Below are positions 3,942-55,040 of a stretch of DNA of 64,000 nucleotides, piece after piece (within the stretch, counting starts at the first letter, position 1; every line of letters begins with the position of its first letter). This DNA is from Minisyncoccota bacterium (lineage in GTDB: Bacteria > Patescibacteriota > Minisyncoccia > 2-02-FULL-40-12 > GWA2-44-9). Made by a program: the position numbers and the translations under genes. Below the pieces are notes generated by a model. It was not told where the DNA came from. It made no database searches and was given only the letters and a program-made list of their open reading frames with translations. The stretch spans positions 6,992 to 70,991 of the forward strand of contig JAGOSO010000003.1 of the NCBI GenBank assembly GCA_018062285.1, given 5' to 3'.

Positions 3942-4444
3942 TCACTGATAAATTTAAAAACGGACAGATAGGATTTACACTAATAGAAACTCTTGTTTCT
4001 TTGGTAATTTTAACACTTACGCTCATTCCAATTCTAAATCTTTCAAACAGCATAAACAGGGTAACCGAAAGCATCCAAGACAACATGATTGCTTCCGGCC
4101 TTGCGCAAGAGGGGATAGAAATAATAAGAAACATGCGAGACACAAACTGGTTTAACAATCGGGCTTTTGATCTCAACCTAGGAGAAGGCGTGGTTAATCA
4201 GCCCTACCAATACAGAGTGGAATGGCAATCTGTATGGCCGGGAACGTACGCTAACACCCCCCTAAACATAAGCAACGGAATGTACACATACTTCCCAGGA
4301 GAAGTTTCTAAGTTTACTCGCACAATCACAATCACAAAAATTAACGCGGGGGAACTCAGTGTGGTCAGCCAAGTGTCGTGGACGGATGGTCGAGGTAACT
4401 CAAGATCAATTTCAGCTGAAGACCATTTATTTAATTGGAAATAG
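3938..4444 (+). CDS. Minor pilin (GspI/PilV-like), 168 aa.
   Basis: N-terminus MITDKFKNGQIGFTLIETLVSLVILTL. It overlaps the previous stop by 4 nt. Confidence 0.7.
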   Translation: MITDKFKNGQIGFTLIETLVSLVILTLTLIPILNLSNSINRVTESIQDNMIASGLAQEGIEIIRNMRDTNWFNNRAFDLNLGEGVVNQPYQYRVEWQSVWPGTYANTPLNISNGMYTYFPGEVSKFTRTITITKINAGELSVVSQVSWTDGRGNSRSISAEDHLFNWK

Positions 4445-4445
4445 A

Positions 4446-4959
4446 ATGAACAGAATCAATAACCAAAAAGGATTCACTCTTATAGAACTTGTCGTATCTG
4501 CTTTTGTTTTTTCAATTATCGTTGCAGTTGTTAGTGGATTGTTTGTGCAAATACTTAAGGCCGAAAGGAGGGCTTTCGCTGCTCAAAAAATCCAAGAAAA
4601 TGGTTTATTTATTGTAGAACTCATGTCTCGTGAAATCAGAGTTAGCCAAATAGTCGCCAATGATCAAAGCCCAGCCGGCAACTCACCAAGCTGCACACTC
4701 CAAGCGCTGACAATCCGTCACCCAGTCAACGGTACCGTCACATACGCTCTGGTGGGGGACATTCTCCAGAGAACCGCTGACGGCTCAGTTACAGACCTAA
4801 GTTCTTCAGCAGTCAGTTTTTCACGACTAAACTTCTGTCTCACGGGAGGTGCCCCCACTGACGCACAGCAGGCAAGAGTTGGAATCATTGCTTCAATTCA
4901 AAATAAGACAGGCAAAGAAATAGTAAAAGTTAACTTGGAGACATCAGTCTCATCCAGAG

Positions 4960-17148: not shown

Positions 17149-17523
17149 ATGCTACTAAGATTTACAAGGATTAGCTTATCCAGTTTAATAATTTTATCTT
17201 TTATCTTAATTCTCTCTGCCAACAAAGCGGAGGCTCTTTCCTTGATGATGCCGTTTGGGGGTAAGATAAAATCTGTCCAACCTTGCACTTGCCCTGCAAA
17301 TCTAGCTTGGCAGATTACTGTCGGCCCGCCCCGACCCGGAGTTTTCATGTACAAACCAGGAATGTCCACCTTATTCTCTAAATTTAATATTTTCAGCCCA
17401 GGCCCTTATGTTGTGGGCATTGCAACGGGATACTCTCCCTGCATGCAAGCAAGTGTCACTGGTTGCACGCCAACCAGCACCGGCGGGCCACTTATCCGAC
17501 TTGTAGGAACCTCTGGTTTTTAG
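17149..17523 (+). CDS. Small secreted Cys-containing protein, 124 aa. First gene of a secretion-system-like operon.
   Basis: Signal peptide MLLRFTRISLSSLIILSFILILSANKAEA. No family recognised. Confidence 0.5.
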   Translation: MLLRFTRISLSSLIILSFILILSANKAEALSLMMPFGGKIKSVQPCTCPANLAWQITVGPPRPGVFMYKPGMSTLFSKFNIFSPGPYVVGIATGYSPCMQASVTGCTPTSTGGPLIRLVGTSGF

Positions 17524-17603
17524 ACCTCAAAGTATCCACACCTAGCCCTAAAATCGACACACTGATTGGTGCTATACTTAACGTAGGCAAAATAATGATT
17601 TTT

Positions 17604-17619
17604 GTGTGAAATTACACAC
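17604..17619. promoter_or_regulatory. Inverted repeat GTGTG-N6-CACAC, 12 nt upstream of the 17631 start. Candidate operator.
   Basis: Perfect 5 bp arms with a 6 nt spacer in the only sizeable intergenic gap of the operon. Confidence 0.25.
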
Positions 17620-17630
17620 GAAAAACTACC

Positions 17631-18530
17631 GTGCCAAATAAAATAAAGATCGCATTAACTCTCGTGGCCATAGTAGCCGGATTTTTGGTTTATCAGCTGG
17701 CACAATACGTCCACACAATAGCCAACGGCAACTCCACCTTCCAACAAGGCACTCCTTTGCCTAACCCTGATGATGATCCAGACCACGACGGACTAAATAA
17801 TCAACAAGAAATTATATGGGGGACAGATCCATTCAATTCAGACAGTGACAAGGATGGTTTTAAAGATGGCGAAGAGATTAAGTCGGGGCACAACCCACTC
17901 GTCCCTGGCCCCAACGACCTGCTTAACGACGACAATCTTACCCAAAAAATTTCTGATCTAACTGTTAGCGGTCTTTATTCTGGGGACCTCAAACCAGAGA
18001 GCCAGAACTACCAGCAAGCCATCGCCGACATAGCAGATGCGATCGCTGATTCTAGTAAATACACATTTGCTCAAAAAACAATATCTACCGACTTAAATAT
18101 TATTGAGGGTGGAACAAAAAACAACAAAGAATATCTAAAAAAATTAAATCCAATACTAACAGATTTTGAAATTTCACTGAAAGATCAATACGAAAATCTA
18201 ATTCCCAATCTCAACATTGTAGGTGAAAGAGGATTTTCTGATCAATCAATAAAAGACTTTTATTCAAAGCAGGAATCAAAACAATTGGATCTTTTTAAAC
18301 AAATGTCTGATCTTGATATTCCAAGAGATTTTAAAGACGCCCACCAACATTTCATGAGCATAATCCAAAGAGTGGGGGATATTAGTGAATCAATAAAAAA
18401 TGGTGAAGTTGATCCAGTTAAAGCCTCTAGCGCACTGAGCAATCTTGCTGAAATGTACCAAAACTACGAAACAATGCTTTCTGAATATAGTGTAGTAATT
18501 AATTCGAGGAGCCTAGGCGAAAGTCTATAA
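17631..18530 (+). CDS. Membrane-anchored protein with Asp-rich calcium-binding-like (TSP3-type) repeats, 299 aa, GTG start.
   Basis: N-terminal TM helix, then DDDPDHDGLNNQQE...DPFNSDSDKDGFKDGEE motifs. The remainder has no recognised family. Confidence 0.55.
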   Translation: MPNKIKIALTLVAIVAGFLVYQLAQYVHTIANGNSTFQQGTPLPNPDDDPDHDGLNNQQEIIWGTDPFNSDSDKDGFKDGEEIKSGHNPLVPGPNDLLNDDNLTQKISDLTVSGLYSGDLKPESQNYQQAIADIADAIADSSKYTFAQKTISTDLNIIEGGTKNNKEYLKKLNPILTDFEISLKDQYENLIPNLNIVGERGFSDQSIKDFYSKQESKQLDLFKQMSDLDIPRDFKDAHQHFMSIIQRVGDISESIKNGEVDPVKASSALSNLAEMYQNYETMLSEYSVVINSRSLGESL

Positions 18531-18532
18531 AA

Positions 18533-20431
18533 ATGAAAAGGTTATTTTCTGCAATATTAATAATAGTAATTATAAGTCAGTATTTTATTTATCCAATATA
18601 CGCTCAAGCAAGCATCAAAAGTAGTGCTGTTGAGTTTGCTGGGTGCGCAACCGGAAACATTGCAGGGAACTATCTTTCGGGGAAGGTTGCAGGGCTTGTG
18701 AGCAAGCTCAAGGACAAAATAAAAGATAAGGTGACAAGCGGCATAACAGACGCCTTAACAACTGTTCCGGTTTCAGACTCCGGCGTAAAAGGAGCCCAGA
18801 AGGATGGGAACGCGCAGGATTTTACAAAAGCATATGTGACTGATGTTATTGCGAGATGTGCAGCAAGAACAATATTAAACACGATGGTCGCAAATATTTT
18901 CGACATAATGCGCACTTCAGGTCGTGACGGGGGAGTAACATTCATAAGGAATTGGACAAACTTTCAATTGGCTGCTCAATACCGAGGAGAAAACATCTTT
19001 AGAGCTGAATTGAGCACTGCCCAATTGTGTGACTATCTAGCTGATGGAATAAAAAAATCTTTTGGAGTAGACCCTAACAAAAAAACTCCAATATCGGGAC
19101 AGAGCACTAGAACAGACTCATTGCAGCCCTTCAGTGTTTCCTCAAAATGCACCATGCCGGCTGGTTTTTCTATGAGTAAGTATCAAAATGATTTTGCTGG
19201 CAACGGGGGTTGGGATGCATTTTCCAGAATGCTAGAACCACAAAATAATGCTTGGGGACTTACTGCGATGTCTCAAACAGAAATAACCAAACAAAGAGGA
19301 CTCGCTGTTAGTGCTGACCTAGCTCAAGCTCAGGCCGGGTCTGGATACATAGGCACCAGTGGCAGAGGAAAAGCGGACAGTTGTGCAGTTAAAAGCCCGA
19401 ACGGTAACGATTGTATTGTCTACAATGATATAAAAACAACCGGTAGCTACATTGCCGCCAATGTAGCAGCGAGTATAAACGCTGAGCTAACTTGGATAAC
19501 TAGTGCACAAAGCTTGGGCTCTATCGTTGCAAACCTAACAGAAGTTCTTTTGAACAGGATGTTAGACCAAGGTAACCCAGACGAGGGCCTTCCTCGCTCA
19601 GCCGACGAAACAGGAGGAATAGATCTAAGCACCGCTGGCCCAACAGCCACAACAACCCCAACCGGAACACCACAAGTATGTTTACTCACTGCAACAAAAA
19701 CAAGACTCACACCCTTATCAATCCAAATAAAATCAGCGATAAACTCCATCGACTTAGGAACAAGAGAGAACACCATAAAAAGCAGGATGGACCCAGCGAT
19801 AATCCTAATCCACAACCTCAGGGTAAGTCTTTCAACCACTGAATACGACACGGCAAGTAAACTGCAAGACATAGAATCAATAATGGGATCTTTTGAATCT
19901 TTGGCCCTCACAAACAACAAAACGGCTCCCGAAACAAACCAGCTAAACGACTATAGGCGCGCAATAACAAAAGACCTTGATGATCTATTGGCGGAACCTA
20001 TCTGCACGACAGCAACCCCAACGCCAACAAGTGAGCCAGACCTAAGTTGCGCTGAACAAGGACTAAAAGAAGCATATTCACAGAATGTGGTGTCAGCAAT
20101 AAGTGATTTCATGTTAGCCCAACCAGCCATTGCATCGCTCCCAGATGACGATGAGGGTGGACCAAACAATACATTGTTTATGAATGGTGTAGTAAACACG
20201 CTGAGCGGAAAAGGATTCACCTCTGGCCGATTGCTCCATGTGGCCACTGGTAAATTAAGCGGTGACAAAATTATTGTTGGGAAAAACCCTCCTGATCCAG
20301 ATGGAGAAGTTTATGACATCATCAACTCAACGGGGGATGGCAAGCCATTTAATTCAAACGGTAAGATAAGCAATTCCTGCAAGATTCATGAAGATTGGTC
20401 AAAGCTAGTACCAGCCGAACCGGCACCATAA
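18533..20431 (+). CDS. Large secreted protein of unknown function, 632 aa.
   Basis: Signal peptide MKRLFSAILIIVIISQYFIYPIYAQA. Gly/Ser/Thr-rich with several Cys. It is tightly coupled (2 nt gap) to the neighbouring genes. Confidence 0.6.
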   Translation: MKRLFSAILIIVIISQYFIYPIYAQASIKSSAVEFAGCATGNIAGNYLSGKVAGLVSKLKDKIKDKVTSGITDALTTVPVSDSGVKGAQKDGNAQDFTKAYVTDVIARCAARTILNTMVANIFDIMRTSGRDGGVTFIRNWTNFQLAAQYRGENIFRAELSTAQLCDYLADGIKKSFGVDPNKKTPISGQSTRTDSLQPFSVSSKCTMPAGFSMSKYQNDFAGNGGWDAFSRMLEPQNNAWGLTAMSQTEITKQRGLAVSADLAQAQAGSGYIGTSGRGKADSCAVKSPNGNDCIVYNDIKTTGSYIAANVAASINAELTWITSAQSLGSIVANLTEVLLNRMLDQGNPDEGLPRSADETGGIDLSTAGPTATTTPTGTPQVCLLTATKTRLTPLSIQIKSAINSIDLGTRENTIKSRMDPAIILIHNLRVSLSTTEYDTASKLQDIESIMGSFESLALTNNKTAPETNQLNDYRRAITKDLDDLLAEPICTTATPTPTSEPDLSCAEQGLKEAYSQNVVSAISDFMLAQPAIASLPDDDEGGPNNTLFMNGVVNTLSGKGFTSGRLLHVATGKLSGDKIIVGKNPPDPDGEVYDIINSTGDGKPFNSNGKISNSCKIHEDWSKLVPAEPAP

Positions 20432-20441
20432 AACCAACGGG

Positions 20442-22451
20442 ATGCACGCCAACAAAAAACAAAAATTAATATGGGGAATAATGTTAGTGGCAACCCTGTC
20501 TTTGGTTTTACCAACACACCTCATCCAAGCAGCAACTGGGGATAGTTGGCTTGGGCTCCCAACCTTTGAGGGTTTAATGCAGGCATTCTTCTACTGGATT
20601 TTTGTTATCGTGGGCAATCTCACCGGTATTGCGGCCAAGGCTTTAAACTTTGCCATTTTCACTAGGCCAGGAGCCGACATACCCATAGTAACAGGCACTT
20701 GGACAATCCTTAGGGATTTTTCCAACATGATCTTTATACTCCTCTTGGTTTATATGGCCCTTGCAACCATTTTTGACTACGACAGTAAATACAAATTCAA
20801 AGATGTAATAGTTAAATTTGTATTTGTAGCAGTTTTAATTAATTTTAGTCTAGTAATCGGCCATCTCATTATTGATTTCTGCCAAGTTCTGACCAATGTT
20901 TTTCTGGGCACGATTGGCAACGTAGGGGATAGACTAGGCACCTATCTTAATCCATCCTTATTGTTACCTGGGCCAGACCAAGCCGGCGCAACGTTGATAT
21001 CTTTGGTTTTTGCTGTAATTCTTTCTTTGATCTATTTATTTAGTCTGCTTGTGGCCCTAGTCTTTGCTGTCATTCGCACGCCGTACATTTGGATCCTTTT
21101 AATTCTTTCTCCTCTTGCTTGGATGAGTCACATTTTTCCAAATGGAGAAAAGTGGTGGAAACAATGGTGGAGTAACTTTTGGGGCTGGAATCTTTTTTTG
21201 CCTGTATATTTATTTTTCATGTACCTGGGTCTTCTGTTTTTGGCACAGAGAGACACTATTATGTCGGCCGTTGTTAGGTCACAAATCGAAAGCGGAGGAG
21301 TCAACCCAACTGGTGTGCCGCTACTGGCTGGGCTGTCTACTTCAATGACTTTTAACCTTCTTTTCTTTTACCTATTTGCGGCCTTCGTAATGATTGGTGG
21401 TCTAAAAGCGGCAATAAGCGTTACCAGCATGATGGGCAGCGGATTTGATAAAAGCGTAGGTATGGCCAAGAATTTTGTTAAGAGATTGCCAATAGTACCT
21501 GGCGTTGGCAATCTTGAAGCTGCTGAAAAAGCTTACGGCGCACGCAGGTCGGAATTCCAACAAAAAGGATTCAGGAATCCTTGGCTCAACAAGGTCTATG
21601 GCGGGACAGATGCTCAGAAAAAAGCCAATGAAAAAGCCTCTAAATTTGCTCCTTTCCGGCTGGAAGTGCCGGAATCAAAGGTACAGAAAGACTTCGTCGC
21701 CGAAGTCAGGAAGCAATATGACGACATCGAAGATAAATATGACACAGGCGGTCTATCGATAACTCAACTAAAAGCAAAAATAGATTCCACAAAAGCAGAC
21801 AGTGCTGATGGTTACGCCTACCGCAAATTTGCAATCAAGAAAGGTGTCCTAAAGGGGGACCAGTTCAGAAACAGTCTCGAATCATTAAAAAACAATCCTT
21901 ACGCTGTTCAGGATTTTGTTAAAACCGCACAAGATGCCAAGTTTAACAACTTGGGTGACATTGCGGCCCTGGGATTAGACACGACCTTAGCAACGCCAGG
22001 GCTAGTGGCGGCAAGAAGGAGTATGCTCATGCACGTTTCAGATGACGCAAGAAGTGCCTCAAAACTCGATGCTGCCCAATTTGCTTCAGCCATACGGGAA
22101 TTAGGAACATACGAATCACCAGAAGGTAAAAAATTCTTCAAAAATGCTGGCAAATTTAGGCCAGATCTTATGATTAATTACACGCTTGATCCGGCAAACA
22201 ACACAGGGGAAACGAAGACCAGAGAGCAATTATGGGACGGAGCAATCAATACTGACGCCAAAGATATTGTCTCTATGCCTATGTCTGTTTGGGGGGAGAG
22301 TGGATTCCATGGCGCAATGAGCAGAAAACTTGGTCCGGTCGCAGGAAGAAACAATGCCCAGAAGAAACTAAGGGCAAGATTTGAGCAGCTATTCCTAAAT
22401 GACCCAGACGGGGCGGCCAAACAACTTGCGCTGGACACACACATACCTTAA
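20442..22451 (+). CDS. Polytopic membrane protein, VirB6/TrbL-like by topology, 669 aa.
   Basis: At least 7 TM helices in the first ~340 aa, then a ~300 aa hydrophilic C-terminal domain. It lies upstream of the VirB3-like and VirB4 genes. The assignment rests on architecture only. Confidence 0.4.
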   Translation: MHANKKQKLIWGIMLVATLSLVLPTHLIQAATGDSWLGLPTFEGLMQAFFYWIFVIVGNLTGIAAKALNFAIFTRPGADIPIVTGTWTILRDFSNMIFILLLVYMALATIFDYDSKYKFKDVIVKFVFVAVLINFSLVIGHLIIDFCQVLTNVFLGTIGNVGDRLGTYLNPSLLLPGPDQAGATLISLVFAVILSLIYLFSLLVALVFAVIRTPYIWILLILSPLAWMSHIFPNGEKWWKQWWSNFWGWNLFLPVYLFFMYLGLLFLAQRDTIMSAVVRSQIESGGVNPTGVPLLAGLSTSMTFNLLFFYLFAAFVMIGGLKAAISVTSMMGSGFDKSVGMAKNFVKRLPIVPGVGNLEAAEKAYGARRSEFQQKGFRNPWLNKVYGGTDAQKKANEKASKFAPFRLEVPESKVQKDFVAEVRKQYDDIEDKYDTGGLSITQLKAKIDSTKADSADGYAYRKFAIKKGVLKGDQFRNSLESLKNNPYAVQDFVKTAQDAKFNNLGDIAALGLDTTLATPGLVAARRSMLMHVSDDARSASKLDAAQFASAIRELGTYESPEGKKFFKNAGKFRPDLMINYTLDPANNTGETKTREQLWDGAINTDAKDIVSMPMSVWGESGFHGAMSRKLGPVAGRNNAQKKLRARFEQLFLNDPDGAAKQLALDTHIP

Positions 22452-22456
22452 TCAAT

Positions 22457-22951
22457 ATGGAAAACGACAAAAACTACAACACCCCCTACACAATAGGGCT
22501 GAGGCCTCTTAAGGATAGGGCCTCCATCGAAACCTACATGAATGAGGTCAGAAAAAGTCCGCCCGCCGTTTTAGGCATAATGACCGACGAAAAAACAGCT
22601 GACTTCTTAGAAGACGCTCTTGGCCCAGCTTTTGGTCTTACCGAACCAGCCATTGAAGAAATTACAAGAATTTTAAAAGACACTCTTCTTGGGAATTCAT
22701 TTGTCGGTGACCTTAGTAATGACATTAAGCATAAATTAAACATTGAAGAATACTTAGCCCAACAAATTAAAGACAAAATCGTAAAAGAACTTCTTGCCCC
22801 AGCTGCTGAAGATATTAAAAAAATACACAGAGAAAAGTTTCCAGACAGAATCAAGAAGGGAAGTGAACCAGTCCCACCTTCACCACCACAACAAACACAA
22901 CCAACACAAGTCAGTGATAGCAACGTTATCAATCTTAGGAACCAACAATAA
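22457..22951 (+). CDS. Hypothetical soluble protein with a Pro/Gln/Thr-rich C-terminal tail, 164 aa.
   Basis: ORF inside the operon with 5 nt and 8 nt gaps to its neighbours. Confidence 0.5.
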   Translation: MENDKNYNTPYTIGLRPLKDRASIETYMNEVRKSPPAVLGIMTDEKTADFLEDALGPAFGLTEPAIEEITRILKDTLLGNSFVGDLSNDIKHKLNIEEYLAQQIKDKIVKELLAPAAEDIKKIHREKFPDRIKKGSEPVPPSPPQQTQPTQVSDSNVINLRNQQ

Positions 22952-22959
22952 AAAAATAA

Positions 22960-23268
22960 ATGCGTTTTCAACTTCCACAATTCATTGAAACAGAGATAAA
23001 AATTATTGGCCCCTTTACCTTGAAGCAATTCTTGTGGGTGGCGACTGGAGCCGTGTTTTTGTTTTTAGATTTTAGCGTTTTCACTGGAGTCATCGCCATT
23101 GCAATTGCTATTCCGATTGTTGCCATATCTAGCGCTTTTGCTTTCTTAAGGATCGACGACATGCCACTAATTAATTATGTGGCCAACATGCTTTCTTTTT
23201 CTTTTGGCTCAAAAAAATATTTATACCAAGACGAAACCAATCAAAATGATATACTGAAAAGTAAATAG
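22960..23268 (+). CDS. Small two-TM protein, VirB3-like by size and position, 102 aa.
   Basis: Two hydrophobic helices (LWVATGAVFLFLDFSVF / GVIAIAIAIPIVAISSAFAFL). It lies immediately upstream of the VirB4 N-domain ORF, as VirB3/PrgI-type proteins do. Confidence 0.35.
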   Translation: MRFQLPQFIETEIKIIGPFTLKQFLWVATGAVFLFLDFSVFTGVIAIAIAIPIVAISSAFAFLRIDDMPLINYVANMLSFSFGSKKYLYQDETNQNDILKSK

Positions 23269-23271
23269 CCA

Positions 23272-23919
23272 ATGCCGACCCAATCCACAAAAGAACTAGT
23301 ATCAATTGCCGACATAAAAGACAGCATTGTCTTGCTAAAAAACGGTTCTCTCCGAGCCGTCCTTGAGGTTTCCGCGGTTAATTTTGAGCTACGTTCAGAA
23401 GAAGAACAAACCGGCATCCTTCAGAACTTCCAACGATTTTTGAATTCTGTAGATTTTCCTCTGCAGATGATTATCAACTCTCGCCAGCTCAACATGGACG
23501 AATATTTAAAAATGGTTGATGACGTCGCTGAATCATCCACAAATGAACTTCTGAAGATCCAGGCTATTGAATACCGAAAATTTGTCAAAGAACTCCTCGA
23601 ACTATCAAATATCATGACTAAGCATTTTTATGTTGTGCTACCTTTCTACGTCTACGAAACACCCACAAAAACAGGTGTATTAGACAGCATCAAGGGAATG
23701 TTTGGAAAAAATCAAACAGTTCAACAAATTAAACCAGAGCAACTTGAAACTTACCGCACCCAGTTAATGCAACGGGCTGACCTGATTCTCGACGGCCTGA
23801 TTGGTATTGGCCTTAAAGCACGCTTATTGGAGGGCCAAGAACTCAGCAATTTATACTACGGGATCTATAATCCAGGAGAAAAAATGAACACACCACCCAC
23901 AGAAAAAATAGCGATCTAA
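23272..23919 (+). CDS. VirB4/TraC/TrbE N-terminal domain-like protein, 215 aa. It is separated from the ATPase ORF by one in-frame TAA.
   Basis: ...SIADIKDSIVLLKNGSLRAVLEVSAVNFELRSEEEQ matches the conserved start of VirB4 N-domains (DG-SL...EL-G-D...S-EE). It is in the same frame as the next ORF. Confidence 0.5.
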   Translation: MPTQSTKELVSIADIKDSIVLLKNGSLRAVLEVSAVNFELRSEEEQTGILQNFQRFLNSVDFPLQMIINSRQLNMDEYLKMVDDVAESSTNELLKIQAIEYRKFVKELLELSNIMTKHFYVVLPFYVYETPTKTGVLDSIKGMFGKNQTVQQIKPEQLETYRTQLMQRADLILDGLIGIGLKARLLEGQELSNLYYGIYNPGEKMNTPPTEKIAI

Positions 23920-23922
23920 ACC

Positions 23923-25677
23923 ATGCCAGAACCACTAACCCAACAAACCCAAACTATTCCTGAAACCTTGGCCCCAGCCGCCATGTCTGTTTCTTCAAAT
24001 AGTATCCAAATTGGCCCCAAATTTGCCAGAACAATATTTCTTGCCACATACCCTAGGTATCTAAACACCAACTGGCTCTCTCCGATTATTAACTTGGACC
24101 GTGCTTTCGATGCTTCTATTTTTGTTCACCCAAAAAGCACCGCCGAGGTTTTAAAAAAGCTTCGCGATCAACTCGCCCGATTACAAGCACAAGCAATAGA
24201 AGAAGCTTCACAAGGTAAGGTGCGTGACCCAATCCTAGAAACAGCTATGGCCGACATTGAAACTCTTCGCGACAAGCTGCAGCAGGGGACAGATAAGTTT
24301 TTTGAACTAGGGGTTTATATCACTATCTACGAAAACAGTGTTAAAGAACTAGATGAAACCGAAAGTAAAATCAAAGGATTTTTGGAATACCAATTAATCT
24401 TTGCAAAGCCAGCAACCTTCCGAATGATGGAAGGATTTAATTCCACCCTCCCGACAGATGATGACCAACTCAACGTTCACACCTCATTAAACACGGAGCC
24501 ACTGTCATCACTATTCCCGTTCGTTTCTTTCGACCTTACTTCAAACTCTGGGATTCTGTATGGCATTAATACCCACAACAATTCTTTGGTTTTATTCGAC
24601 AGGTTTAAACTTGAAAACTACAATTCAGTTGTTTTTGGTAAATCTGGTGGAGGCAAAAGCTACACCATCAAACTAGAAATTCTTCGCAGTTTAGTTTTTG
24701 GCACCCAAGTACTAATCATTGACCCTGAAGATGAGTACAAATACTTAGCTGACACCGTGGGTGGTTCACCAGTAAAAATATCTATTAATTCCGACCAACA
24801 CATCAACCCATTTGACCTGCCTGCACCCAAAGAAGGGGAGATCCCGGCTGATATTTTCCGTTCTCATATTTTAGACCTGTCTGGATTGATGAAGTTAATT
24901 TTGGGAGATCTAACCCCAGAAGAATCGGCGATTCTAGACGAAGCCCTTATCCAAACTTACGCCATTAAAGACATTTCTCCTGATTCTGATTTTACAAAAA
25001 CACCACCACCAGTATTGGGTGACCTGCAAAACATTCTCGAAGGATTAACGGGAGCAGAATCAATGGCCACAAGATTAAAGAAATACACCTCTGGCACATT
25101 CGCTGGCTTCTTAAACCAACCAACAAACGTTCCCCTAGACAACCAGATGATAGTCTTTGGCATTCGAGACATGGAAGAAGAGCTTCGACCAATTGCAATG
25201 TACTTAATCTTGAACTTCATTTGGGTTAAGGTTCGTCGTGATATTAAACAAAGAATTATCTTGGTGGACGAAGCTTGGGTCTTAATGAAATACGAAGTCG
25301 GAGCCAACTTCTTATCAAACATCGCCAAGCGTTGTCGCAAATACTTCACAGGTTTAACTACTATCTCCCAAGATATTCCCGATTTCTTGGCAAGCCCCCA
25401 AGGTAAAACTATTTTGACCAACTCTTCGATTCAAATTTTGATGAAACAATCACCAGCCGCTATTGATATTGTTCAACAAACTTTCAACCTCACTGATGCC
25501 GAAAAATTCTATATCCTTGAAGCCCGCGTCGGCTTTGGCCTATTCTTCCTTGGTCAAAACCATATCGGTATTCGTATTGTTGCCTCTTACGCTGAAGACC
25601 AGATTATCACCTCTGACCCTCGCCAGATTTTAGAAATAGAAAAAGCCAAAGAAGAATGGGCTAATATTCAAAAATAG
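23923..25677 (+). CDS. VirB4/TraC/TrbE-family conjugation-type ATPase (C-terminal ATPase portion), 584 aa.
   Basis: Walker A VFGKSGGGKSYT and Walker B IILVDEAW (the DEAW hallmark of VirB4). Size and motif spacing fit a VirB4 C-terminal half. Confidence 0.75.
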   Translation: MPEPLTQQTQTIPETLAPAAMSVSSNSIQIGPKFARTIFLATYPRYLNTNWLSPIINLDRAFDASIFVHPKSTAEVLKKLRDQLARLQAQAIEEASQGKVRDPILETAMADIETLRDKLQQGTDKFFELGVYITIYENSVKELDETESKIKGFLEYQLIFAKPATFRMMEGFNSTLPTDDDQLNVHTSLNTEPLSSLFPFVSFDLTSNSGILYGINTHNNSLVLFDRFKLENYNSVVFGKSGGGKSYTIKLEILRSLVFGTQVLIIDPEDEYKYLADTVGGSPVKISINSDQHINPFDLPAPKEGEIPADIFRSHILDLSGLMKLILGDLTPEESAILDEALIQTYAIKDISPDSDFTKTPPPVLGDLQNILEGLTGAESMATRLKKYTSGTFAGFLNQPTNVPLDNQMIVFGIRDMEEELRPIAMYLILNFIWVKVRRDIKQRIILVDEAWVLMKYEVGANFLSNIAKRCRKYFTGLTTISQDIPDFLASPQGKTILTNSSIQILMKQSPAAIDIVQQTFNLTDAEKFYILEARVGFGLFFLGQNHIGIRIVASYAEDQIITSDPRQILEIEKAKEEWANIQK

Positions 25678-25679
25678 CC

Positions 25680-26213
25680 ATGCCCACAGAAGAAGAGATT
25701 ACAAAACTTCGTTTAGACCCTCAGAGAGAAAAATATCAGGCCCAACAACGAGCCCAACAATACCCTGAGAAAACAGAGGAAGACACAATAAGACTCAATC
25801 TCAGCCAAGAACGCCAAGCTTACGAACTTCAACTTCAAGCAGAACAAGAGGAAAGAGAGCCAGACCCAACCAAGCCAACAGAAAAGATGGGGTTTTTCTT
25901 TTTTGTGGCGGGATTACTCCTTTGTGTTGTGGGGGATCTTATAGATTTTTTTACTGGTGGAACAATTGGCTGGTTAGTTGGAATTTTTATAGATTTAATC
26001 CTTCTTGCAATGTTCGGCATGTCTAGGTCAGGAAGGGGACAGATAAAAAAAATACTTATAGCTGTTGTTGGAGAAAGCATTCCTGTCGTGGACATGTTAC
26101 CGCTTAGGACAATCTTCCTGTGCTGGTCATTTATAAAATCGCGTAGTAAAATTGCAAATGTTATAGACAAAGGGTTTAATTCCCGAGCTTCTGGCGCTGG
26201 ACCCGTTTTATAA
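25680..26213 (+). CDS. Hypothetical membrane protein: Gln/Glu-rich N-terminal region plus a C-terminal TM hairpin, 177 aa.
   Basis: MGFFFFVAGLLLCVVGDLIDFFTGGTIGWLVGIFIDLILLAMFGM TM segments. Operon member. Confidence 0.5.
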   Translation: MPTEEEITKLRLDPQREKYQAQQRAQQYPEKTEEDTIRLNLSQERQAYELQLQAEQEEREPDPTKPTEKMGFFFFVAGLLLCVVGDLIDFFTGGTIGWLVGIFIDLILLAMFGMSRSGRGQIKKILIAVVGESIPVVDMLPLRTIFLCWSFIKSRSKIANVIDKGFNSRASGAGPVL

Positions 26214-26226
26214 CCAATAGAAACCC

Positions 26227-27306
26227 ATGGAAAACAACAAAAAACAACTTATTACACTTATTGTTGTCGCCTCATCCCTGACTTCTTTTTTAGCTGGATA
26301 TCTACTGACCCGACCATCCAATGAAATCTCTGATGCTATTCAGCAACAAAGAGGAGTTTTGATAGACAGATTCAGTGACATGGACACAAACTCAACACCC
26401 ACACCGTTACCACCAGGACTCCTTCAGGCATCGACCGATACTGCTTTGGCCCCAACCAACGCCCACGATTCCAACTCTGTTATTTACTACCATACTGTCA
26501 ATGGACACGTTTCCAAGATTGATCTAGAAACACGCAACAGCACCTTAATTTCAACAACACAGCTCAACAATCTTTCTAGGGTTATATGGTCTTCAGACAA
26601 AAACAGAGTCGTAACTGTTTCTAGGAATTCTTCTAGCCCAGCTTATAAATACTTTGATTACACCAGCAAAGCAAATGGGTCATTGGGGATAAACATAAAA
26701 GATGCCGTCTTTTCCCCAGATAGCCAAAATATTGCCATAGTTAGATCGGCTGGGGGAGATAGCACAATTGAAATAATCGGATTTGGTGCGAGTTATCCAA
26801 AGACAATCCTAAAAACTAGATTAAATAACATAAGTTTATTTTGGCCCAGCAGTTCCACTTTGGCTTTTAGCGCAAATGATGATGGCGCAGACACTCAAAG
26901 TCTTTACTTATTAAACGAAAACGGCGAACTAACTCAGTTGATAGACGGGGAACGTGCCCTTTCCATTGTTTGGTCTTCTGATGGTTCTAGGTTTATATAC
27001 TCTGGCCGAGATGGCGACACAACAACATTAAAGCTTTTCGATATTACTTCCCAAAAATCATCCATACTCCCAGTTGCTTCAACTGCCCAAAATTGCGCCT
27101 GGACAATGGACCAAAAATCCATTCTCTGCGCAATTGAGTTCCAAGGAGAAACCTCTGCCACAAAAATAAACCTTTCTAATAATTCGACCCAAACCCTCTT
27201 TTCAAATCTAATCATCACTCCCAAGCAAGTGTTTCTGTCTAACCTTGAGGACTTCTTAGTTATTATCAGTGCTGCCGACCAAAGCATTTGGGAACTCAAG
27301 CTCTAG
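26227..27306 (+). CDS. N-terminally anchored beta-propeller (TolB/WD40-like) protein, 359 aa.
   Basis: One TM helix, then repeated strand-rich blocks with ...WSSD...VV... periodicity. Last gene of the operon. Confidence 0.5.
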   Translation: MENNKKQLITLIVVASSLTSFLAGYLLTRPSNEISDAIQQQRGVLIDRFSDMDTNSTPTPLPPGLLQASTDTALAPTNAHDSNSVIYYHTVNGHVSKIDLETRNSTLISTTQLNNLSRVIWSSDKNRVVTVSRNSSSPAYKYFDYTSKANGSLGINIKDAVFSPDSQNIAIVRSAGGDSTIEIIGFGASYPKTILKTRLNNISLFWPSSSTLAFSANDDGADTQSLYLLNENGELTQLIDGERALSIVWSSDGSRFIYSGRDGDTTTLKLFDITSQKSSILPVASTAQNCAWTMDQKSILCAIEFQGETSATKINLSNNSTQTLFSNLIITPKQVFLSNLEDFLVIISAADQSIWELKL

Positions 27307-29557: not shown

Positions 29558-30931
29558 ATGACAAACGAGGAATTATGGAAAGCGGTTCTTGGGGAAATGG
29601 AGCTCTCGTTAACACGAGCCAATTTTATCACTTGGTTTAAAAACACAACGATTGTGGCTCGTGATAATAATTCTATCGTTGTTAGTGTTCCCAACGGATT
29701 CATTAAAGAGTGGCTGGAGAACAAGTTTAATAAAAAGATTTTACAATCAATTCGTGGTTTAACCCCTGAAATACGAGAGGTTAAGTATTCAATAGGGAAG
29801 CCTAAGGTGGAATTTGTCCGACAGGATATCTCTAGGATAATCTTTGAAAAGGAGCTAGAGGAGAAATCAAACAATGCACCAGCCGACACAGACGTAGACC
29901 GTGCCACCAACCTAAACAAAAGGTATTCCTTTGATACATTCGTGTCTGGTTCAAGCAACGACATGGCCCATGCTGCTTGTTTGGCTGTCACTAAAAATTT
30001 AGGTAAGGTTTATAACCCTTTATTTATCTACGGAAATGTTGGTCTTGGTAAAACCCATTTAATCCAAGCGGTTGGAAACAAAGTTGCCGAAAACAAAGAA
30101 AAGAAAGTTTTATATCTTCAAGCCGAAAGATTTGCTGCCCAAATAGTTGAAGCTATTATGAACAGAACGATCGAAGACCTTAAGGGGCAATACGCAAAAC
30201 TAGATCTTTTGATTCTAGATGATATTCAATTTATTGCCGGCAAAACAAAGGCCCAGGAAATTGTTTTCTCTACCTTTAATGAGCTGTACGGAAAAAATAA
30301 ACAAATTATTTTATCCTCAGATAGGCCTCCTGCTGCAATTTCAACCCTTGAAGATCGTCTCAGGTCTCGCTTTGAAGGGGGAATGATTGCGGATGTTGGT
30401 TTACCAGACATGGAAACAAGGTTGGCTATTTTAAAGCAGAAACTTATTGGCAAAAATGTAGAATTGGCAGACGACACACTTGCTTATATTGCCACCCACA
30501 TGCAAAAGAACATTAGAGAATTAGAGGGTGCTCTTAATAGGGTCGTGGCTTACACTCAAATCTACAACAAAGCTCCTGACTTGAAGGAAGTTAAAAACAT
30601 TCTTAATACATACCTGAGTACCCCTTACAAAAAGACTTCTCCTCAGGTAATTCTTAAGGCTGTTGCTGATTTTTACAATATCTCCGCGGCTGACTTAGTA
30701 AAAAGGAGTCGCAAAAAAGAAGTCGTTCGACCAAGGCAAGTGGCAATGTTCTTATTGAGAGACGAAACAAAGCTTTCTTTCCCTGAAATTGGACAAAAAC
30801 TTGGAGGAAGAGACCACTCTACTGTTATCCATGCCTGTGAAAAAATAAAAACCGAATCTGCCATTGACGAGCCGCTTAAGCAGGAGTTAACACTTATCAA
30901 GGAACGTGTGTATAACTCTTTTGATAAGTAG
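29558..30931 (+). CDS. dnaA: Chromosomal replication initiator DnaA.
   Basis: AAA+ Walker A GNVGLGKTHL, sensor motifs and a C-terminal DNA-binding domain. 457 aa. Confidence 0.95.
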   Translation: MTNEELWKAVLGEMELSLTRANFITWFKNTTIVARDNNSIVVSVPNGFIKEWLENKFNKKILQSIRGLTPEIREVKYSIGKPKVEFVRQDISRIIFEKELEEKSNNAPADTDVDRATNLNKRYSFDTFVSGSSNDMAHAACLAVTKNLGKVYNPLFIYGNVGLGKTHLIQAVGNKVAENKEKKVLYLQAERFAAQIVEAIMNRTIEDLKGQYAKLDLLILDDIQFIAGKTKAQEIVFSTFNELYGKNKQIILSSDRPPAAISTLEDRLRSRFEGGMIADVGLPDMETRLAILKQKLIGKNVELADDTLAYIATHMQKNIRELEGALNRVVAYTQIYNKAPDLKEVKNILNTYLSTPYKKTSPQVILKAVADFYNISAADLVKRSRKKEVVRPRQVAMFLLRDETKLSFPEIGQKLGGRDHSTVIHACEKIKTESAIDEPLKQELTLIKERVYNSFDK

Positions 30932-31150
30932 GGGATAATTAAGGGATAAGTATCTTATTGGAGTCGGGTGTGGATTAATACCAAGTTTTTACCCCCAGAT
31001 ATCCTACTACATATCCACAGGTAGCAGACAGCTAGGGTGGTAATTAAAGCAAGGATTAATAAGTGTTTATAGAAATATTTGTTAATCTTATCCCCATATC
31101 CACTCCCTTAATAAGAGTAATAAAATAATTAAGAATAATATTTATTCATT
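30932..31150. promoter_or_regulatory. dnaA-dnaN intergenic region with a cluster of DnaA boxes. Candidate oriC.
   Basis: TGTGGATTA (30969-77), TATCCACA (31012-19), TTATCCCCA (31088-96) and ATATCCACT (31096-104) within about 140 nt of AT-rich DNA. Confidence 0.6.
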
Positions 31151-39490: not shown

Positions 39491-41215
39491 TCAGCCTAAA
39501 ATTCTCTCAATCTCATCAAAGGATGTGACTCCGGCCAACATTTTCATGTAGGCATCTTGTCTCATGGTAATCATTCCTTGCTTGATTGCTAATTCGGTTA
39601 CGTCGGCCATGGATGGACTGGTCATGACAAGCTTCTCCATTTCAGGGGTGACAACAAAGGCTTCATAAACACCAATACGTCCTTTGTAGCCAGTGTTGTT
39701 GCACTTGTCGCAACCAGCCGGCTCAAAGACTTCTGGGTTTTCTGCTAATGATGGTAATTTAAATTTATCAGCGATTGGTTCAATGTCCGTTTTGATTTTT
39801 TCTAAGCGACCTGCGGCTAAAGGTTTTTTGGCTCGGCAAGATTCGCATAATTTTCTGAGCAAGCGCTGAGCCATGGCCATACGAATTGATGGAGCAATAA
39901 TCTGAGGTTGAACTTTCAAGTCGATCAAACGGGGGATCGTGCCAGCTGCATCATTGGTGTGGATGGTCGACAAAACCAAATGGCCAGTGAGGGCAGCATT
40001 CAAAGCAATCTCAGCAGTTTCATTGTCGCGGATTTCGCCGACGAGAATAATGTCAGGGTCTTGGCGAACTATAGACCTTAATCCATCAGCAAATGTGTAG
40101 CCCTTAGTTGGGTCTACTTGGGTTTGGGAGATTCCAGTAATGTGATATTCGATTGGGTCTTCAATGGTCACAATCTTATCTTCGGAAGAGTTCAAGAAAT
40201 TAACAAAGGCGTAGAGAGTGGTTGTTTTACCAGATCCGGTTGGACCAGTGGTCAATATGGCCCCCGTGGGTTTGCCTAATTGCTCCTTAACCATTTCTAA
40301 AAAGTCTGGGCGCATACCCAAATCTTCTAACTTGCCCTTGATGCTTCGTGGATCTAAAAGACGCATTACAATTGTTTCGCCAAATTCACTAGGCAACAAA
40401 GAAACACGAACCTCGATATCGATCCCACCTTCGCGAATAGTGAAGCGTCCGTCTTGCGGGGCGCGGGAGATGTTTAATTTTAAGTGGGATAAAATTTTGA
40501 TACGATTGACCACTTTCTCATAGGATTCTTTTTCAATGGTCGTAACATCTTCCAAGACGCCATCCATACGATATCGCAAGCGAGCATTTTCGTTGGTTGG
40601 CTCAAAGTGGATGTCGGAGGCTCCAATCTTTAAGGCGCCAGCCAAAAGAATTTCTAACAATTTGGTGGTAGAAACACTGGCCACTTGTTGTTGGAGGTCT
40701 TTAACCGAACCGATCTTGCTTTGTAGTTCTGCGAGTTCTTCTTCTTTAATATCAATCGAACCAACTTCAAAAGTATCAACATGTTTTAAATTGGCGTATC
40801 TTCCCCAAGCATGATCAAGCCCAGCAGGGGAGGTCATGATTACTGCAATCTTGAATCCGCGGCCCTTAAGCGCAACGATTGATTCATTTGTTTCTATTGC
40901 TGCTGGATCGGTGGTAGCAACGGTGAGAGTTACTCCTGTCTTTAGGATAATGGCAAAGTTTCCAGCTCGAGCTCGAGCTTCATCAACCAAACCAAGTGCA
41001 CCAGTATCGATTGGGGCATTAGCGAGATCAGAAAACGGAACACCAAGCTTCTGGGCTGCTGCCTGGAAGGAGTCCTTGCTTCCGTGAGCATTAATTTGCC
41101 CTAGCTTTTTCTCTAGTTCTGCTTCTCTCTTTGCTTGTGCTGTTGCTTGGTCAGACATTTCTATAATTATATCACCTTGGCTTGTTTCAGATATCACCAA
41201 CATGATCCTGGCCAT
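39491..41215 (-). CDS. pilB: Type IV pilus assembly ATPase PilB (GspE family).
   Basis: N-terminal GSPII_E_N-like domain, Walker A GPTGSGKTTT, Asp box, Walker B and His box. 574 aa. Confidence 0.9.
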   Translation of the reverse strand: MARIMLVISETSQGDIIIEMSDQATAQAKREAELEKKLGQINAHGSKDSFQAAAQKLGVPFSDLANAPIDTGALGLVDEARARAGNFAIILKTGVTLTVATTDPAAIETNESIVALKGRGFKIAVIMTSPAGLDHAWGRYANLKHVDTFEVGSIDIKEEELAELQSKIGSVKDLQQQVASVSTTKLLEILLAGALKIGASDIHFEPTNENARLRYRMDGVLEDVTTIEKESYEKVVNRIKILSHLKLNISRAPQDGRFTIREGGIDIEVRVSLLPSEFGETIVMRLLDPRSIKGKLEDLGMRPDFLEMVKEQLGKPTGAILTTGPTGSGKTTTLYAFVNFLNSSEDKIVTIEDPIEYHITGISQTQVDPTKGYTFADGLRSIVRQDPDIILVGEIRDNETAEIALNAALTGHLVLSTIHTNDAAGTIPRLIDLKVQPQIIAPSIRMAMAQRLLRKLCESCRAKKPLAAGRLEKIKTDIEPIADKFKLPSLAENPEVFEPAGCDKCNNTGYKGRIGVYEAFVVTPEMEKLVMTSPSMADVTELAIKQGMITMRQDAYMKMLAGVTSFDEIERILG

Positions 41216-52122: not shown

Positions 52123-52136
52123 ATGATTATTAACTG

Positions 52137-52208
52137 TGCGACTGGATGGGATCGAACCATCGACCGCGTCATTATAAGTGACGTGCTCTACCACTGAGCT
52201 ACAGTCGC
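52137..52208 (-). tRNA. tRNA-Ile (anticodon TAT / UAU).
   Basis: Acceptor GCGACTG/CAGTCGC, anticodon stem CGTCA/TGACG with loop CT-TAT-AA, T-arm GATGG-TTCGATC-CCATC. The anticodon was read directly from the sequence. No CCA. Confidence 0.7.
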
Positions 52209-52230: not shown

Positions 52231-54081
52231 TTATTTTACGAGCGCGTAGAACTCTTTCTGCTCGATTGTCTCCTTCTTTATAAGTTCTTTTGCTATTAAA
52301 TTCAACTTATCTGTTTGCTCGGCTAATATCTTCTTGGCTGAAGCAAGGCCCTTGGTGACAAGTTTTTTGATCTCCGAGTCTATCTGGTAGGCGATTGTTT
52401 CGGAGTAGTTTTTGCCTGAAGAAAAATCACGTCCCAAGAAAACTTGGTCGTCTTTTTCATGGAAAGATATTGGGCCCAGAGTATCGGACATACCGTATTG
52501 GGTAACCATTTTGCGGGCTAATTCTGAAGCAACCTTTAGGTCGTTAGAGGCACCAGTGGTAGTTTGCTTGAAGATTAATTTTTCAGCGGCGTAACCAGCC
52601 AAAAGGACAGCTAATTCTGACTCAAATTCTGGCTTTGATTTTAAGTACTTATCTTCACTTGGAACTTTCATCGTGAAGCCACCAGCCCGGCCACGAGACA
52701 CGATTGAGACTTTGTGGACTTTGTCTGAGTGGGGCATGGCTGAGGCTACCAAAGCGTGACCAGCTTCGTGGTAGGCAGTGATTTCCTTTTCTTTCTTAGA
52801 CATGACATGGCTGCGTCGTTCTGGGCCTAGGATAACTTTTTCGATAGCTTCGATTATGTTTAATTGAGTGATTTCGGTTTGGTTGCCACGAGCGGCAAGG
52901 ATAGCAGATTCGTTTAAGAGGTTGGCTAATTCAGCACCAGAAAATCCAACAGTTCTTTCGGCGATTGGTACAAGATTTACATCCTTAGATAAAGGCTTAT
53001 CCATTGCGTGAATTTTCAAGATAGCTTCACGGTCTTTTAGTGAAGGTTCATCCAAGATGACGCGGCGATCAAAACGACCTGGGCGCAATAAGGCTGGATC
53101 AAGAATATCAGGGCGGTTGGTGGCGCCCATTACAATGACGGCATTGTTGGTGTCAAAGCCATCCATCTCCACAAGAATTTGGTTTAAAGTTTGTTCGCGT
53201 TCATCGTGGCCCCCACCAAGACCGGCGCCTCGGTGTCTGCCAACAGCATCGATTTCGTCGATGAAAATAATAGACGGAGAGGTTTTTTTGGCGAGCTCAA
53301 AAGTGTCACGAACACGGTTGGCACCAACGCCAACAAACATTTCTACGAACTCAGAACCAGAAACATAGTAGAAGGGGACACGAGCTTCGTTGGCAACGGC
53401 TCTGGCTAGTAATGTTTTGCCAGTACCCGGAGAACCAACAAGTAAAACACCACGAGGAATACGAGCGCCAAGTTTGTGGAACTTTGCTGGATCTTTTAAG
53501 AATTCAACAATTTCTGTGACTTCGGCTTTGGCCTCTAATAATCCGGCGACGTCAGCAAAGGTAACTGGTTTGCGACCACCACCAGATGTGTTGGCGAGTT
53601 GGGCTTTTGATTTTCCAAAAGACAAAGCTTGGCCAGAACCTTTTTGAGCTTGGCGGAACATGTACCAGAAGATGAACCAGATAAGGGCAAAGGGGATCAA
53701 GGTTGGAATGATGTTCGAGAAGAAGGATTCTATTCCTGACGGGTCTTGTATTTGAATTTTAACAGCGTTTAGCTTTGTTTTATCAGCACCAAGATTTACC
53801 AAGGTTTCAAAAGCAGAAATTGAATTTTCTTTTTTGGTCGAGAAGATGGCTTGGTCGTTACCAATAAGTTGGATTTTGTCTCCGGTGACGTTTATTTCTT
53901 TAATACTACTAGAGTTTATTTTGCTAACAGCTTCGGAAAGAGCGATATTTGACGAAGAAGTGGTGGAACCAAAAAGCGAGGCAATTAAGGCCATTGTAAA
54001 TAGGATCCCCAATACAATTAAGAAGTATTTTATGTATGCTTTCATGGACATGATTTTAGCATAAAATAACTCTTCTGGCAA
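52231..54081 (-). CDS. ftsH: ATP-dependent zinc metalloprotease FtsH.
   Basis: N-terminal TM pair, AAA+ Walker A GSPGTGKT, an SRH region and the HEAGHAL zinc site. 616 aa. Confidence 0.95.
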
Positions 54082-54127
54082 TCAATATTTTTTAAAAAAA
54101 TTGGAGTGATTTTTTGAATTAAAAATA

Positions 54128-54166
54128 CCCGTGAGAAGATAGCAATTTCTGCTGTCTTCTCACGGG
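54128..54166 (-). terminator. Hairpin terminator downstream of the GC-rich island ORF.
   Basis: CCCGTGAGAAGA-tagcaatttctgctg-TCTTCTCACGGG, with a T-rich run on the minus-strand reading. Confidence 0.55.
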
Positions 54167-54189
54167 TCGTGTGTCTTGCGCCGACGATG

Positions 54190-54810
54190 TTACCGCCGGC
54201 TACCTCCCTGCTGGCGCCCGCCGCGCGGCTGTTCGGCCGGGTCGTGCCCGCCAAGAGCGCGGAGGTTGTTCACCAAGCGGGCCCAGCTGTGGACTTGCTT
54301 CGCCGGGTCCTCTTCCTTCTGGGCTTCCGTCCACATCTCGTCAACCTCTGCCTGCGTGAGACCGGGGATGGTTCCCAGCATCCGCTCGGCGCGAGCGATC
54401 TCGCTTTCCACGACGAACTCGAACATCTCCTTTCGGAGATCGACGAGTTCGGTGATGAAGCCCTCCCAGTCATATCCCTTGTCGCGGGAAGAGGGGAGCG
54501 CCGCCTTCTCCTTGAACGTCTGGGTTAGCGCCGCGAGGCGATCCCAGAAGCTCGTGAAGTCGAGGGCCTTGTTGGCCTGGTGCTCGGACTGCTTGACGTA
54601 GTCGGCCCAGACTGCGTTGAGGAGCTTGCTCGCCGAGACCATCGGCGGGCGCTTTCGCTCCTCCCGGGGCTTTGCCACGGGCCGGGCCGGAATTGCCGGT
54701 ACGAGGTCTGCAACGATCGCGGCAACCTTGGGGGTTGAGCGCTTGGTCTTTGCGGTGGTCGAGCCGGCTTCTGCCTTCGGGGTCTTTGCTGCCTTCGGGG
54801 TCTTTGCCAT
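54190..54810 (-). CDS. Hypothetical protein with a Lys/Ala/Pro-rich (histone-H1-like AKTPKA repeat) N-terminal tail, encoded in a ~65% GC island. 206 aa.
   Basis: It is the longest ORF in the GC-rich segment and the only one with protein-like composition. A strong SD (AAGGAG) sits 9 nt upstream of the ATG. The competing + strand ORFs are Arg/Pro/Cys-rich frame artefacts. Confidence 0.6.
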   Translation of the reverse strand: MAKTPKAAKTPKAEAGSTTAKTKRSTPKVAAIVADLVPAIPARPVAKPREERKRPPMVSASKLLNAVWADYVKQSEHQANKALDFTSFWDRLAALTQTFKEKAALPSSRDKGYDWEGFITELVDLRKEMFEFVVESEIARAERMLGTIPGLTQAEVDEMWTEAQKEEDPAKQVHSWARLVNNLRALGGHDPAEQPRGGRQQGGSRR

Positions 54811-54987
54811 GACGTCTTGCTCCTTGCCCTAACGGGCGGATGTGCGGACAGCGGGTTGCCGTCGCGCGCTTCTTCGGATGAAAGACTCGGATGATGGCGG
54901 AATTGCCACCCGCCGAATCGAACTTTTTTAGTTGTTATGGTGCTTACCTTGTCCCTGTATTATATACCCAAACACCATAAATGTCAA

Positions 54988-55028
54988 TACTAAAAAGACG
55001 ACCCTTTTGGGGGTCGTCTTTTTAGTAT
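54988..55028. terminator. Bidirectional palindromic terminator downstream of rpsA.
   Basis: ATACTAAAAAGACGACCC-ttttg-GGGTCGTCTTTTTAGTAT. Confidence 0.8.
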
Positions 55029-55040
55029 TTTTGCCTGGAT

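Follow-up and report, generated by a model that had tools for sequence, protein, structure and literature searches.

The locus considered here raises the question of whether two adjoining open reading frames (ORFs) that together resemble one protein are a broken gene, a recoded gene or simply two genes. The ORFs lie in a 64,000-nucleotide (nt) stretch of DNA from a Minisyncoccota bacterium (assembly GCA_018062285.1, contig JAGOSO010000003.1, positions 6,992 to 70,991), which as a whole is called the window. ORF1 resembles the beginning of VirB4, the ATPase of type IV secretion systems (T4SSs), and ORF2 resembles the remainder; a single TAA and one further codon stand between them. An earlier note on this DNA offered three explanations for the arrangement, namely a naturally split VirB4, a recent nonsense mutation and programmed readthrough of the stop codon. 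The first has held up in the present analysis and the other two have not. We put the probability at close to nine in ten that ORF1 and ORF2 are distinct genes, both functional, in a chromosomal, monoderm (MPF_FATA-like) T4SS and that their products form a VirB4-like protomer. The two-gene state is conserved, is shared with TrsD and TrsE of plasmid pGO1 and is probably ancestral in the lineage. The in-frame position of the TAA is accidental. In all, the gene pair is an unexceptional instance of the known, published TrsD + VirB4 architecture. The features of the gene pair are as follows (aa, amino acids).

23272..23919, + strand: ORF1, 215 aa, TrsD-like, ATG at 23272; predicted to be soluble, without a transmembrane (TM) segment
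23917..23922, + strand: junction, made up of the TAA of ORF1 (23917-23919) and an ACC spacer (23920-23922)
23923..25677, + strand: ORF2, 584 aa, ATG at 23923; short-form VirB4 ATPase
24637..24660, + strand: Walker A motif GKSGGGKS, ORF2 residues 239-246
25255..25278, + strand: Walker B region IILVDEAW, ORF2 residues 445-452

The sequence bears out these coordinates as they had been claimed, together with the stop, the single intervening codon, the ATG at 23923 and the shared frame (23923-23272 = 651 nt, or 217 codons). Walker A, which had been placed at about residue 450 of the ORF1+ORF2 concatenation, starts at about residue 454.

Identity and complementarity of the two products

ORF2 was the more readily identified of the two. 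It scores 353.3 bits against the NCBIfam model conju_CD1110 (cut-off 325), matches the Pfam families P-loop_TraG, AAA_10, DUF87 and CagE_TrbE_VirB, and finds the VirB4 C-terminal domain (4AG5, 4.6e-42) and TrwK (1.2e-5) in the PDB. Alignment with TrsE of pGO1 gave 24% identity (E 7e-42; ORF2 14-552 to TrsE 36-617). A hidden Markov model (HMM) score above cut-off, both Walker motifs and the fold of the VirB4 C-terminal domain are thus all present, and ORF2 can be classified from its sequence as the part of VirB4 that runs from the second half of the N-terminal domain through the RecA-like C-terminal ATPase domain.

Usual pipelines label ORF2 'ATP-binding protein' and ORF1 'hypothetical protein'. 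The resemblance of ORF1 to VirB4 N-terminal domains, proposed earlier from the start of the protein, was nonetheless recovered by four NCBIfam profiles (VirB4_plasma, 8e-11; TrsD/TraD, 7.4e-7; CD1110, 6e-5; TIGR00929, 6e-4), all of which were matched at N-terminal profile positions. The TrsD/TraD match (NF041427; E 7.4e-7, 29.2 bits) aligns ORF1 5-123 with profile positions 14-142 and is best read as homology below the level of equivalog membership. When the ORF1 family profile was compared with pGO1 TrsD by hhalign, the two proved colinear over essentially their full lengths (ORF1 3-201 to TrsD 31-217 of 227; probability 80.6%, E 1.3e-5). ORF1 shares further traits of TrsD: it is small and soluble, its gene lies between one of VirB3 type and a short virB4, and it is remotely homologous to the VirB4 N-terminus. 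The Pfam family PF26593 ('TraC-like') is assigned to the ORF1 family in precomputed annotations only; against our local copy of Pfam-A, ORF1 gave no match. As judged from these profiles, ORF1 is a TrsD-family protein equivalent to the first ~200 residues of a single-chain VirB4.

The two products divide VirB4 between them. With the CD1110 profile, ORF1 15-148 corresponds to positions 11-144 and ORF2 6-549 to positions 181-733, colinearly and without overlap, and the VirB4_plasma and TIGR00929 profiles are split between ORF1 and ORF2 in the same pattern. ORF1 and ORF2 are therefore complementary pieces rather than a VirB4 accompanied by a duplicated domain, in line with the earlier proposal that the pair equals a full-length VirB4. 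Neither ORF scores as a single-chain VirB4 by itself, with 18 (ORF1) and 130 bits (ORF2) against TIGR00929 (VirB4_CagE), whose cut-off is 643 bits.

Single-chain homologues from other Patescibacteria, described below, align across the ORF1/ORF2 junction, which allows the site of the cut to be examined. Taking the motif YNP as the end of the ORF1-like part and YPRYL as the start of the ORF2-like core, the window has 14 aa in the tail of ORF1 and 42 aa in the head of ORF2, or 56 aa in all; the same spacing in the fused homologues is 46-151 aa, with a median of 51. AlphaFold2 (AF2) modelling of the concatenation, using an alignment of fused and split homologues, gave a mean predicted local distance difference test score (pLDDT) of 80 and a predicted template modelling score of 0.67. 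pLDDT fell below 50 at residues 205-225, across the junction, and the modelled concatenation matches full-length TrwK. The cut therefore sits in a variable, low-confidence (disordered) linker, the outcome for which a check on the junction had been suggested, and nothing is missing or duplicated. In a related observation, about a third of the stand-alone ORF1 homologues are 280-440 aa long (among P0132-P0269, and at loci L052 and L054) and carry C-terminal extensions after YNP. The tail behind YNP can thus be long in split proteins too.

Conservation of the two genes and the rival explanations

A search of 5.8 billion proteins with ORF1 retrieved 746 homologues. The best 120 of these are 199-228 aa long, range from 100% to 63% identity and all derive from Patescibacteria, including Paceibacteria, Yanofskybacteria and Parcubacteria. 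HMMER was also run exhaustively against 1.84 billion cluster representatives (50% level) and found 2129 matches to the ORF1 family; of the top 150, 148 stand alone and have the ORF1 domain at the N-terminus. Stand-alone homologues are conserved across the phylum from 100% down to ~30% identity. The best 120 homologues of ORF2 are likewise short, all of them 562-595 aa (100% to 75% identity).

To examine the junction itself, we assembled 79 loci from GTDB species representatives, 75 of which have a complete ORF1 homologue. The homologue ends after 199-295 aa (median 213), at TAA in 43 loci, TAG in 19 and TGA in 13, and an ATPase gene follows directly in 66. The frame of this gene relative to ORF1 is 0, +1 and +2 in 16, 20 and 30 loci, respectively. 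Some of the gene pairs overlap (ATGA, TAATG, up to -17 nt), and others lie as much as several hundred nt apart. Since 16 of 66 is no more than the one in three expected by chance, the in-frame arrangement of the window is unremarkable. Compared with its orthologues, ORF1 shows nonsynonymous divergence (dN) of 0.09-0.28 with synonymous divergence (dS) saturated, a pattern that indicates strong purifying selection. The check on orthologous loci that had been proposed thus returned a conserved two-gene state, with fused forms in other patescibacterial lineages. One locus, L044 (JBBTTJ010000025), seemed to encode a 715-aa fusion; it was rejected as an artefact, as a scaffold gap of 100 N at 4390-4490 lies over its trsD/virB4 junction.

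Several results weigh against the assignment of ORF1 and ORF2 to one protomer. The score of ORF1 against NF041427 falls far short of the curated cut-off of 200 bits. With the ORF1 family as query, a profile search of the PDB returned nothing meaningful (the top hit was dihydrodipicolinate synthase, E 0.9), and an AF2 model of ORF1 alone, built on an 11-sequence alignment, had a pLDDT of 38.6 and was discarded. The docking of ORF1 on ORF2 in the AF2 model is not independent evidence, because the modelled chain was an artificial concatenation and its alignment included fused homologues. Moreover, at eight loci (L055, L061, L067, L068, L070, L072, L073 and L076) the flank retrieved downstream of the ORF1 homologue yielded no virB4 homologue, and in the seven of these with a long enough flank, secreted or membrane proteins follow instead. 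Together with a similar report of unlinked trsD, without adjoining virB4, in Gracilibacteria (PMC12102498), these loci suggest that TrsD may also act apart from the ATPase.

All of the eight except L055 form one sub-lineage, whose ORF1 homologues are 33-38% identical to ORF1 and still lie behind PrgI. In these seven (for example L070, 3968-7902), two signal-peptide proteins, of ~340 aa and ~700-760 aa, take the place of virB4, and the ATPase of the sub-lineage must be encoded elsewhere or beyond the 4-kb flank.

Such loci give some substance to the alternative that ORF1 is an independent accessory factor, that is, a diverged VirB4 N-module that serves, for instance, as an assembly chaperone or as a partner of PrgI or VirB6 and forms no protomer with ORF2. 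The C-terminal extensions noted above, with which about a third of the stand-alone homologues reach 300-440 aa, also favor such a role, as does the faster evolution of ORF1 relative to ORF2 (63% vs. 75% identity at rank 120). We nevertheless regard this alternative as unlikely. The segment absent from ORF2 is exactly that supplied by ORF1, with no redundancy; fused homologues join both parts by a linker of equal length; the concatenation is predicted to fold like full-length TrwK; and the two genes adjoin in 66 of the 75 loci.

Programmed readthrough or other recoding of the TAA, yielding a single-chain VirB4 besides or instead of two products, has in its favor that only TAA and ACC separate two in-frame ORFs and that single-chain homologues exist in other Patescibacteria. 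Recoding of this kind would be expected to leave a conserved in-frame stop in a conserved context, and neither was found. The rate of in-frame junctions is about that of chance, many junctions overlap by 1-17 nt or have gaps of 20 to several hundred nt, the stop codon varies, and among the orthologous junctions neither the context of the stop nor any structure downstream of it is conserved. TGA, TAG and TAA all terminate orthologues, giving no sign of stop-codon reassignment, which the earlier note had also thought unlikely. We consider readthrough very improbable.

A recent nonsense mutation, by which a single TAA would have pseudogenized a full-length virB4 and disabled the motor, is what a local look alone suggests, given the shared frame, the one stop and the ATG one codon on. 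This explanation is almost certainly wrong. The position of the stop is kept in 75 species-level genomes down to 30% identity, with three stop codons and three frames; all close homologues of both halves are short; each ORF has its own ATG; and the junction is like the others of the operon. A pseudogene should show a stop that is absent from close relatives as well as relaxed selection, and ORF1 shows neither. Finally, the source is a metagenome-assembled genome (MAG; the record P0001 is named as a Candidatus Pacebacteria MAG), but we give hardly any credence to an assembly or sequencing error as the origin of the TAA, since the 215-aa product and the junction gatcTAAaccATG are identical in three independent assemblies of different sequencing runs, a like architecture recurs in dozens of other genomes and the sole seemingly fused locus is itself an artefact.

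Fused forms and a possible mechanism

Two fused hits, P0248 (797 aa) and P0240 (898 aa), were combined into a profile, and with it at least 120 fused proteins were recovered that are 778-892 aa long and all carry PF26593 and the ATPase domains. Where the records name a lineage, it is Colwellbacteria or Berkelbacteria. The fused form is ~790 aa long in records named Colwellbacteria, and ~870-890 aa, with a long Pro/Ala-rich linker, in those named Berkelbacteria. In a neighbor-joining tree of the ATPase core (108 sequences, 535 columns, rooted on pGO1 TrsE), fused proteins fall in two clades nested among split ones, and Fitch parsimony on this tree gives a split root and two changes; the tree carries no support values and its outcome depends on the chosen root. 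It is conceivable that the split state is ancestral in the patescibacterial T4SS lineage, that at least two secondary re-fusions took place at the same disordered linker, and that TrsD is a detachable, VirB3-binding half of the VirB4 N-terminal domain. We advance this combined scenario tentatively, with slightly more doubt than belief. If true, it would provide a natural system for dissecting the role of the VirB4 N-terminal subdomain, in which split and fused forms within one phylum serve as natural controls.

[quoted passage not shown] By profile and structural correspondence, ORF1 matches about the first half of this domain. If ORF1 and ORF2 are two genes of one T4SS, they would be translated separately from one operon mRNA, and their polypeptides may assemble non-covalently into a VirB4-like protomer in which ORF1 would supply the N-terminal subdomain. 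On this view, ORF1 could bridge the membrane anchor PrgI and the hexameric ATPase motor.

Translational coupling of the two genes, which the earlier note had attached to the idea of a natural split, is possible. There is no Shine-Dalgarno (SD)-like motif upstream of ORF2, and only 2 of the 57 putative genes in the window have a GGAG, GAGG or AGGA core within 20 nt of their start. Because such motifs are rare across the window, the absence of one at ORF2 says nothing on coupling. Judging from the window, translation initiation in this genome appears to proceed largely without SD pairing.

Genomic surroundings and known systems

ORF1 and ORF2 belong to a T4SS-like operon close to dnaA. The principal features of this region are as follows.

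17149..27306, + strand: T4SS-like operon of ten tightly packed genes, with spacers of 2-13 nt after the first gene
17149-20431, + strand: secreted or membrane proteins of the operon
20442..22451, + strand: VirB6/TrbL-like channel component, 669 aa, with ~7 TM-like segments; the identical gene in L083 carries a precomputed PF19590 (TrbL_3) annotation
22960..23268, + strand: PrgI/VirB3-like small membrane protein, 102 aa; PF12666 PrgI, E 6.4e-9; ~2 TM segments, TM-like segment 23-66
other operon members: a 164-aa protein, a 177-aa protein with 2 TM segments and a membrane-anchored beta-propeller protein
after 27306 and before dnaA, - strand: jag-yidC-yidD and a 112-aa ORF (probably rnpA)
29558-30931, + strand: dnaA, followed by dnaN on the + strand

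The junction between PrgI and ORF1 (22960-23919) consists of the stop TAG, then cca and ATG, in frame 0. PrgI, ORF1 and ORF2 hence share one frame, with one stop and one codon between each. This is probably an accident of tight operon packing, and a curious one given the VirB3-VirB4 fusions that are found elsewhere.

The operon ends ~2.2 kb from dnaA, and the cumulative GC-skew minimum lies near 28 kb. In the 190 bp from 30907 to 31096, which cover the 3′ end of dnaA and part of the dnaA-dnaN spacer, are four DnaA-box-like 9-mers, each with one mismatch to TTATCCACA, and the cluster is a candidate oriC element by sequence. Over the whole window, DnaA-box-like sites number 24 against 17 expected, which is not above chance. 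Nearly all genes from 67 to 27306 are on the + strand and so read towards dnaA. Were this the site of the origin, ~27 kb of genes, among them an operon that appears important, would be oriented head-on to the leftward fork, and such an orientation is unusual.

Other features of the window lie further from the T4SS genes. Genes of type IV pilus/type II secretion system (T2SS) type occur at 788-1990 and 39491-41215 and encode a T2SSF platform protein and a T2SSE PilB-like ATPase; the co-occurrence of pilus and T4SS agrees with reports of the importance of both machines for epibiotic life. A tRNA-Ile with anticodon TAT (UAU) is encoded at 52136-52208 (- strand) beside a tRNA-Val(TAC). A UAU tRNA is uncommon for AUA reading in bacteria, most of which use a CAU tRNA that is lysidine-modified by TilS. 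Local GC content is 0.51 at 54001-56000, compared with ~0.42 elsewhere. This segment contains a hairpin (54986-55029), a perfect-looking palindrome flanked by a 205-aa ORF without a Pfam match (54190-54810, - strand) and an S1-domain gene (55041-56144, - strand). An Rfam scan of the GC-rich 53.8-56.4 kb picked up only this palindrome, below threshold, with an unrelated microRNA model that scored equally on both strands. The hairpin is probably a terminator.

Among the closest known systems are the single-chain VirB4s, namely R388 TrwK (PDB 7O41/8RTD), the CD1110-family proteins of Firmicutes integrative and conjugative elements and the fused patescibacterial proteins. Each of these whole proteins is covered colinearly by ORF1+ORF2, and they differ from the window in being one polypeptide instead of two. 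The fused patescibacterial VirB4s are 42-51% identical to the window proteins and have a linker of 46-151 aa where the window has a stop, 3 nt and a start. VirB3-VirB4 fusion proteins occur in some conjugative systems, as cited in PMC12102498, and illustrate that, over evolution, the VirB3, VirB4-N and VirB4-ATPase modules vary in how they are covalently linked without a change in gene order. Unlike the window, they represent fusion, not fission, at another junction, and none is present here.

In Paenibacillus and Pontibacillus plasmids, PrgI, an ORF1-like protein (274-332 aa) and VirB4 (621-641 aa) are encoded in the same order as in the window. Two other candidate parallels were rejected: the pELF 'TraD' is a VirD4-type TraD and not of TrsD type, and pNP40 lacks trsD. 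In pGO1 of Staphylococcus aureus (NC_012547; pSK41 type, pGO1 subclass of MPF_FATA), the order of trsC-like (VirB3-like), trsD (227 aa) and trsE (672 aa) is again that of the window. ORF1 corresponds to TrsD over its full length and ORF2 to TrsE from the same starting motif, so that the cut point is homologous in the two systems. They differ in that identity is very low (~25%) and in that pGO1 is a conjugative plasmid with a relaxase and a coupling protein, whereas the window system is chromosomal, beside oriC and probably not conjugative; no relaxase was noticed in the window.

The closest counterpart is the T4SS of Patescibacteria itself. Quinonero-Coronel et al. (2025, Microb Genom; PMC12102498) reported TrsD as the most abundant T4SS component in this phylum, with 2272 homologues, of which 1664 are associated with virB4, and noted that the loci are often near dnaA. 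They described TrsD as a 'remote homologue of the N-terminal portion of VirB4' and assigned it no function; according to the same paper, the TrsD homologue of Ca. Southlakia epibionticum ML1 (Wang et al. 2023, as cited there) is listed as essential. Complementarity with a shortened VirB4 and fused forms are not discussed there. The strict complementarity of the two products, the position of the cut in a linker and the fused versions in Colwellbacteria- and Berkelbacteria-type lineages are accordingly our additions to the published work, and they are minor. Current understanding of T4SSs is unchanged by these results. What they do convey is that two genes normally encode the motor of the patescibacterial T4SS, a machine that has been reported to be essential to epibiotic life, and that adjoining in-frame ORFs resembling one protein are no evidence of a lesion or of recoding. 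Viewing ORF1 as the missing VirB4 N-terminal module also gives it a concrete role to test, that of a bridge between PrgI/VirB3 and the ATPase. The window agrees with the published patescibacterial TrsD + VirB4 loci in phylum, in the gene pair, in the PrgI/VirB3 gene upstream and in its chromosomal position near dnaA; it shows no essential difference from them, and its locus is of the ~1664 virB4-associated type.

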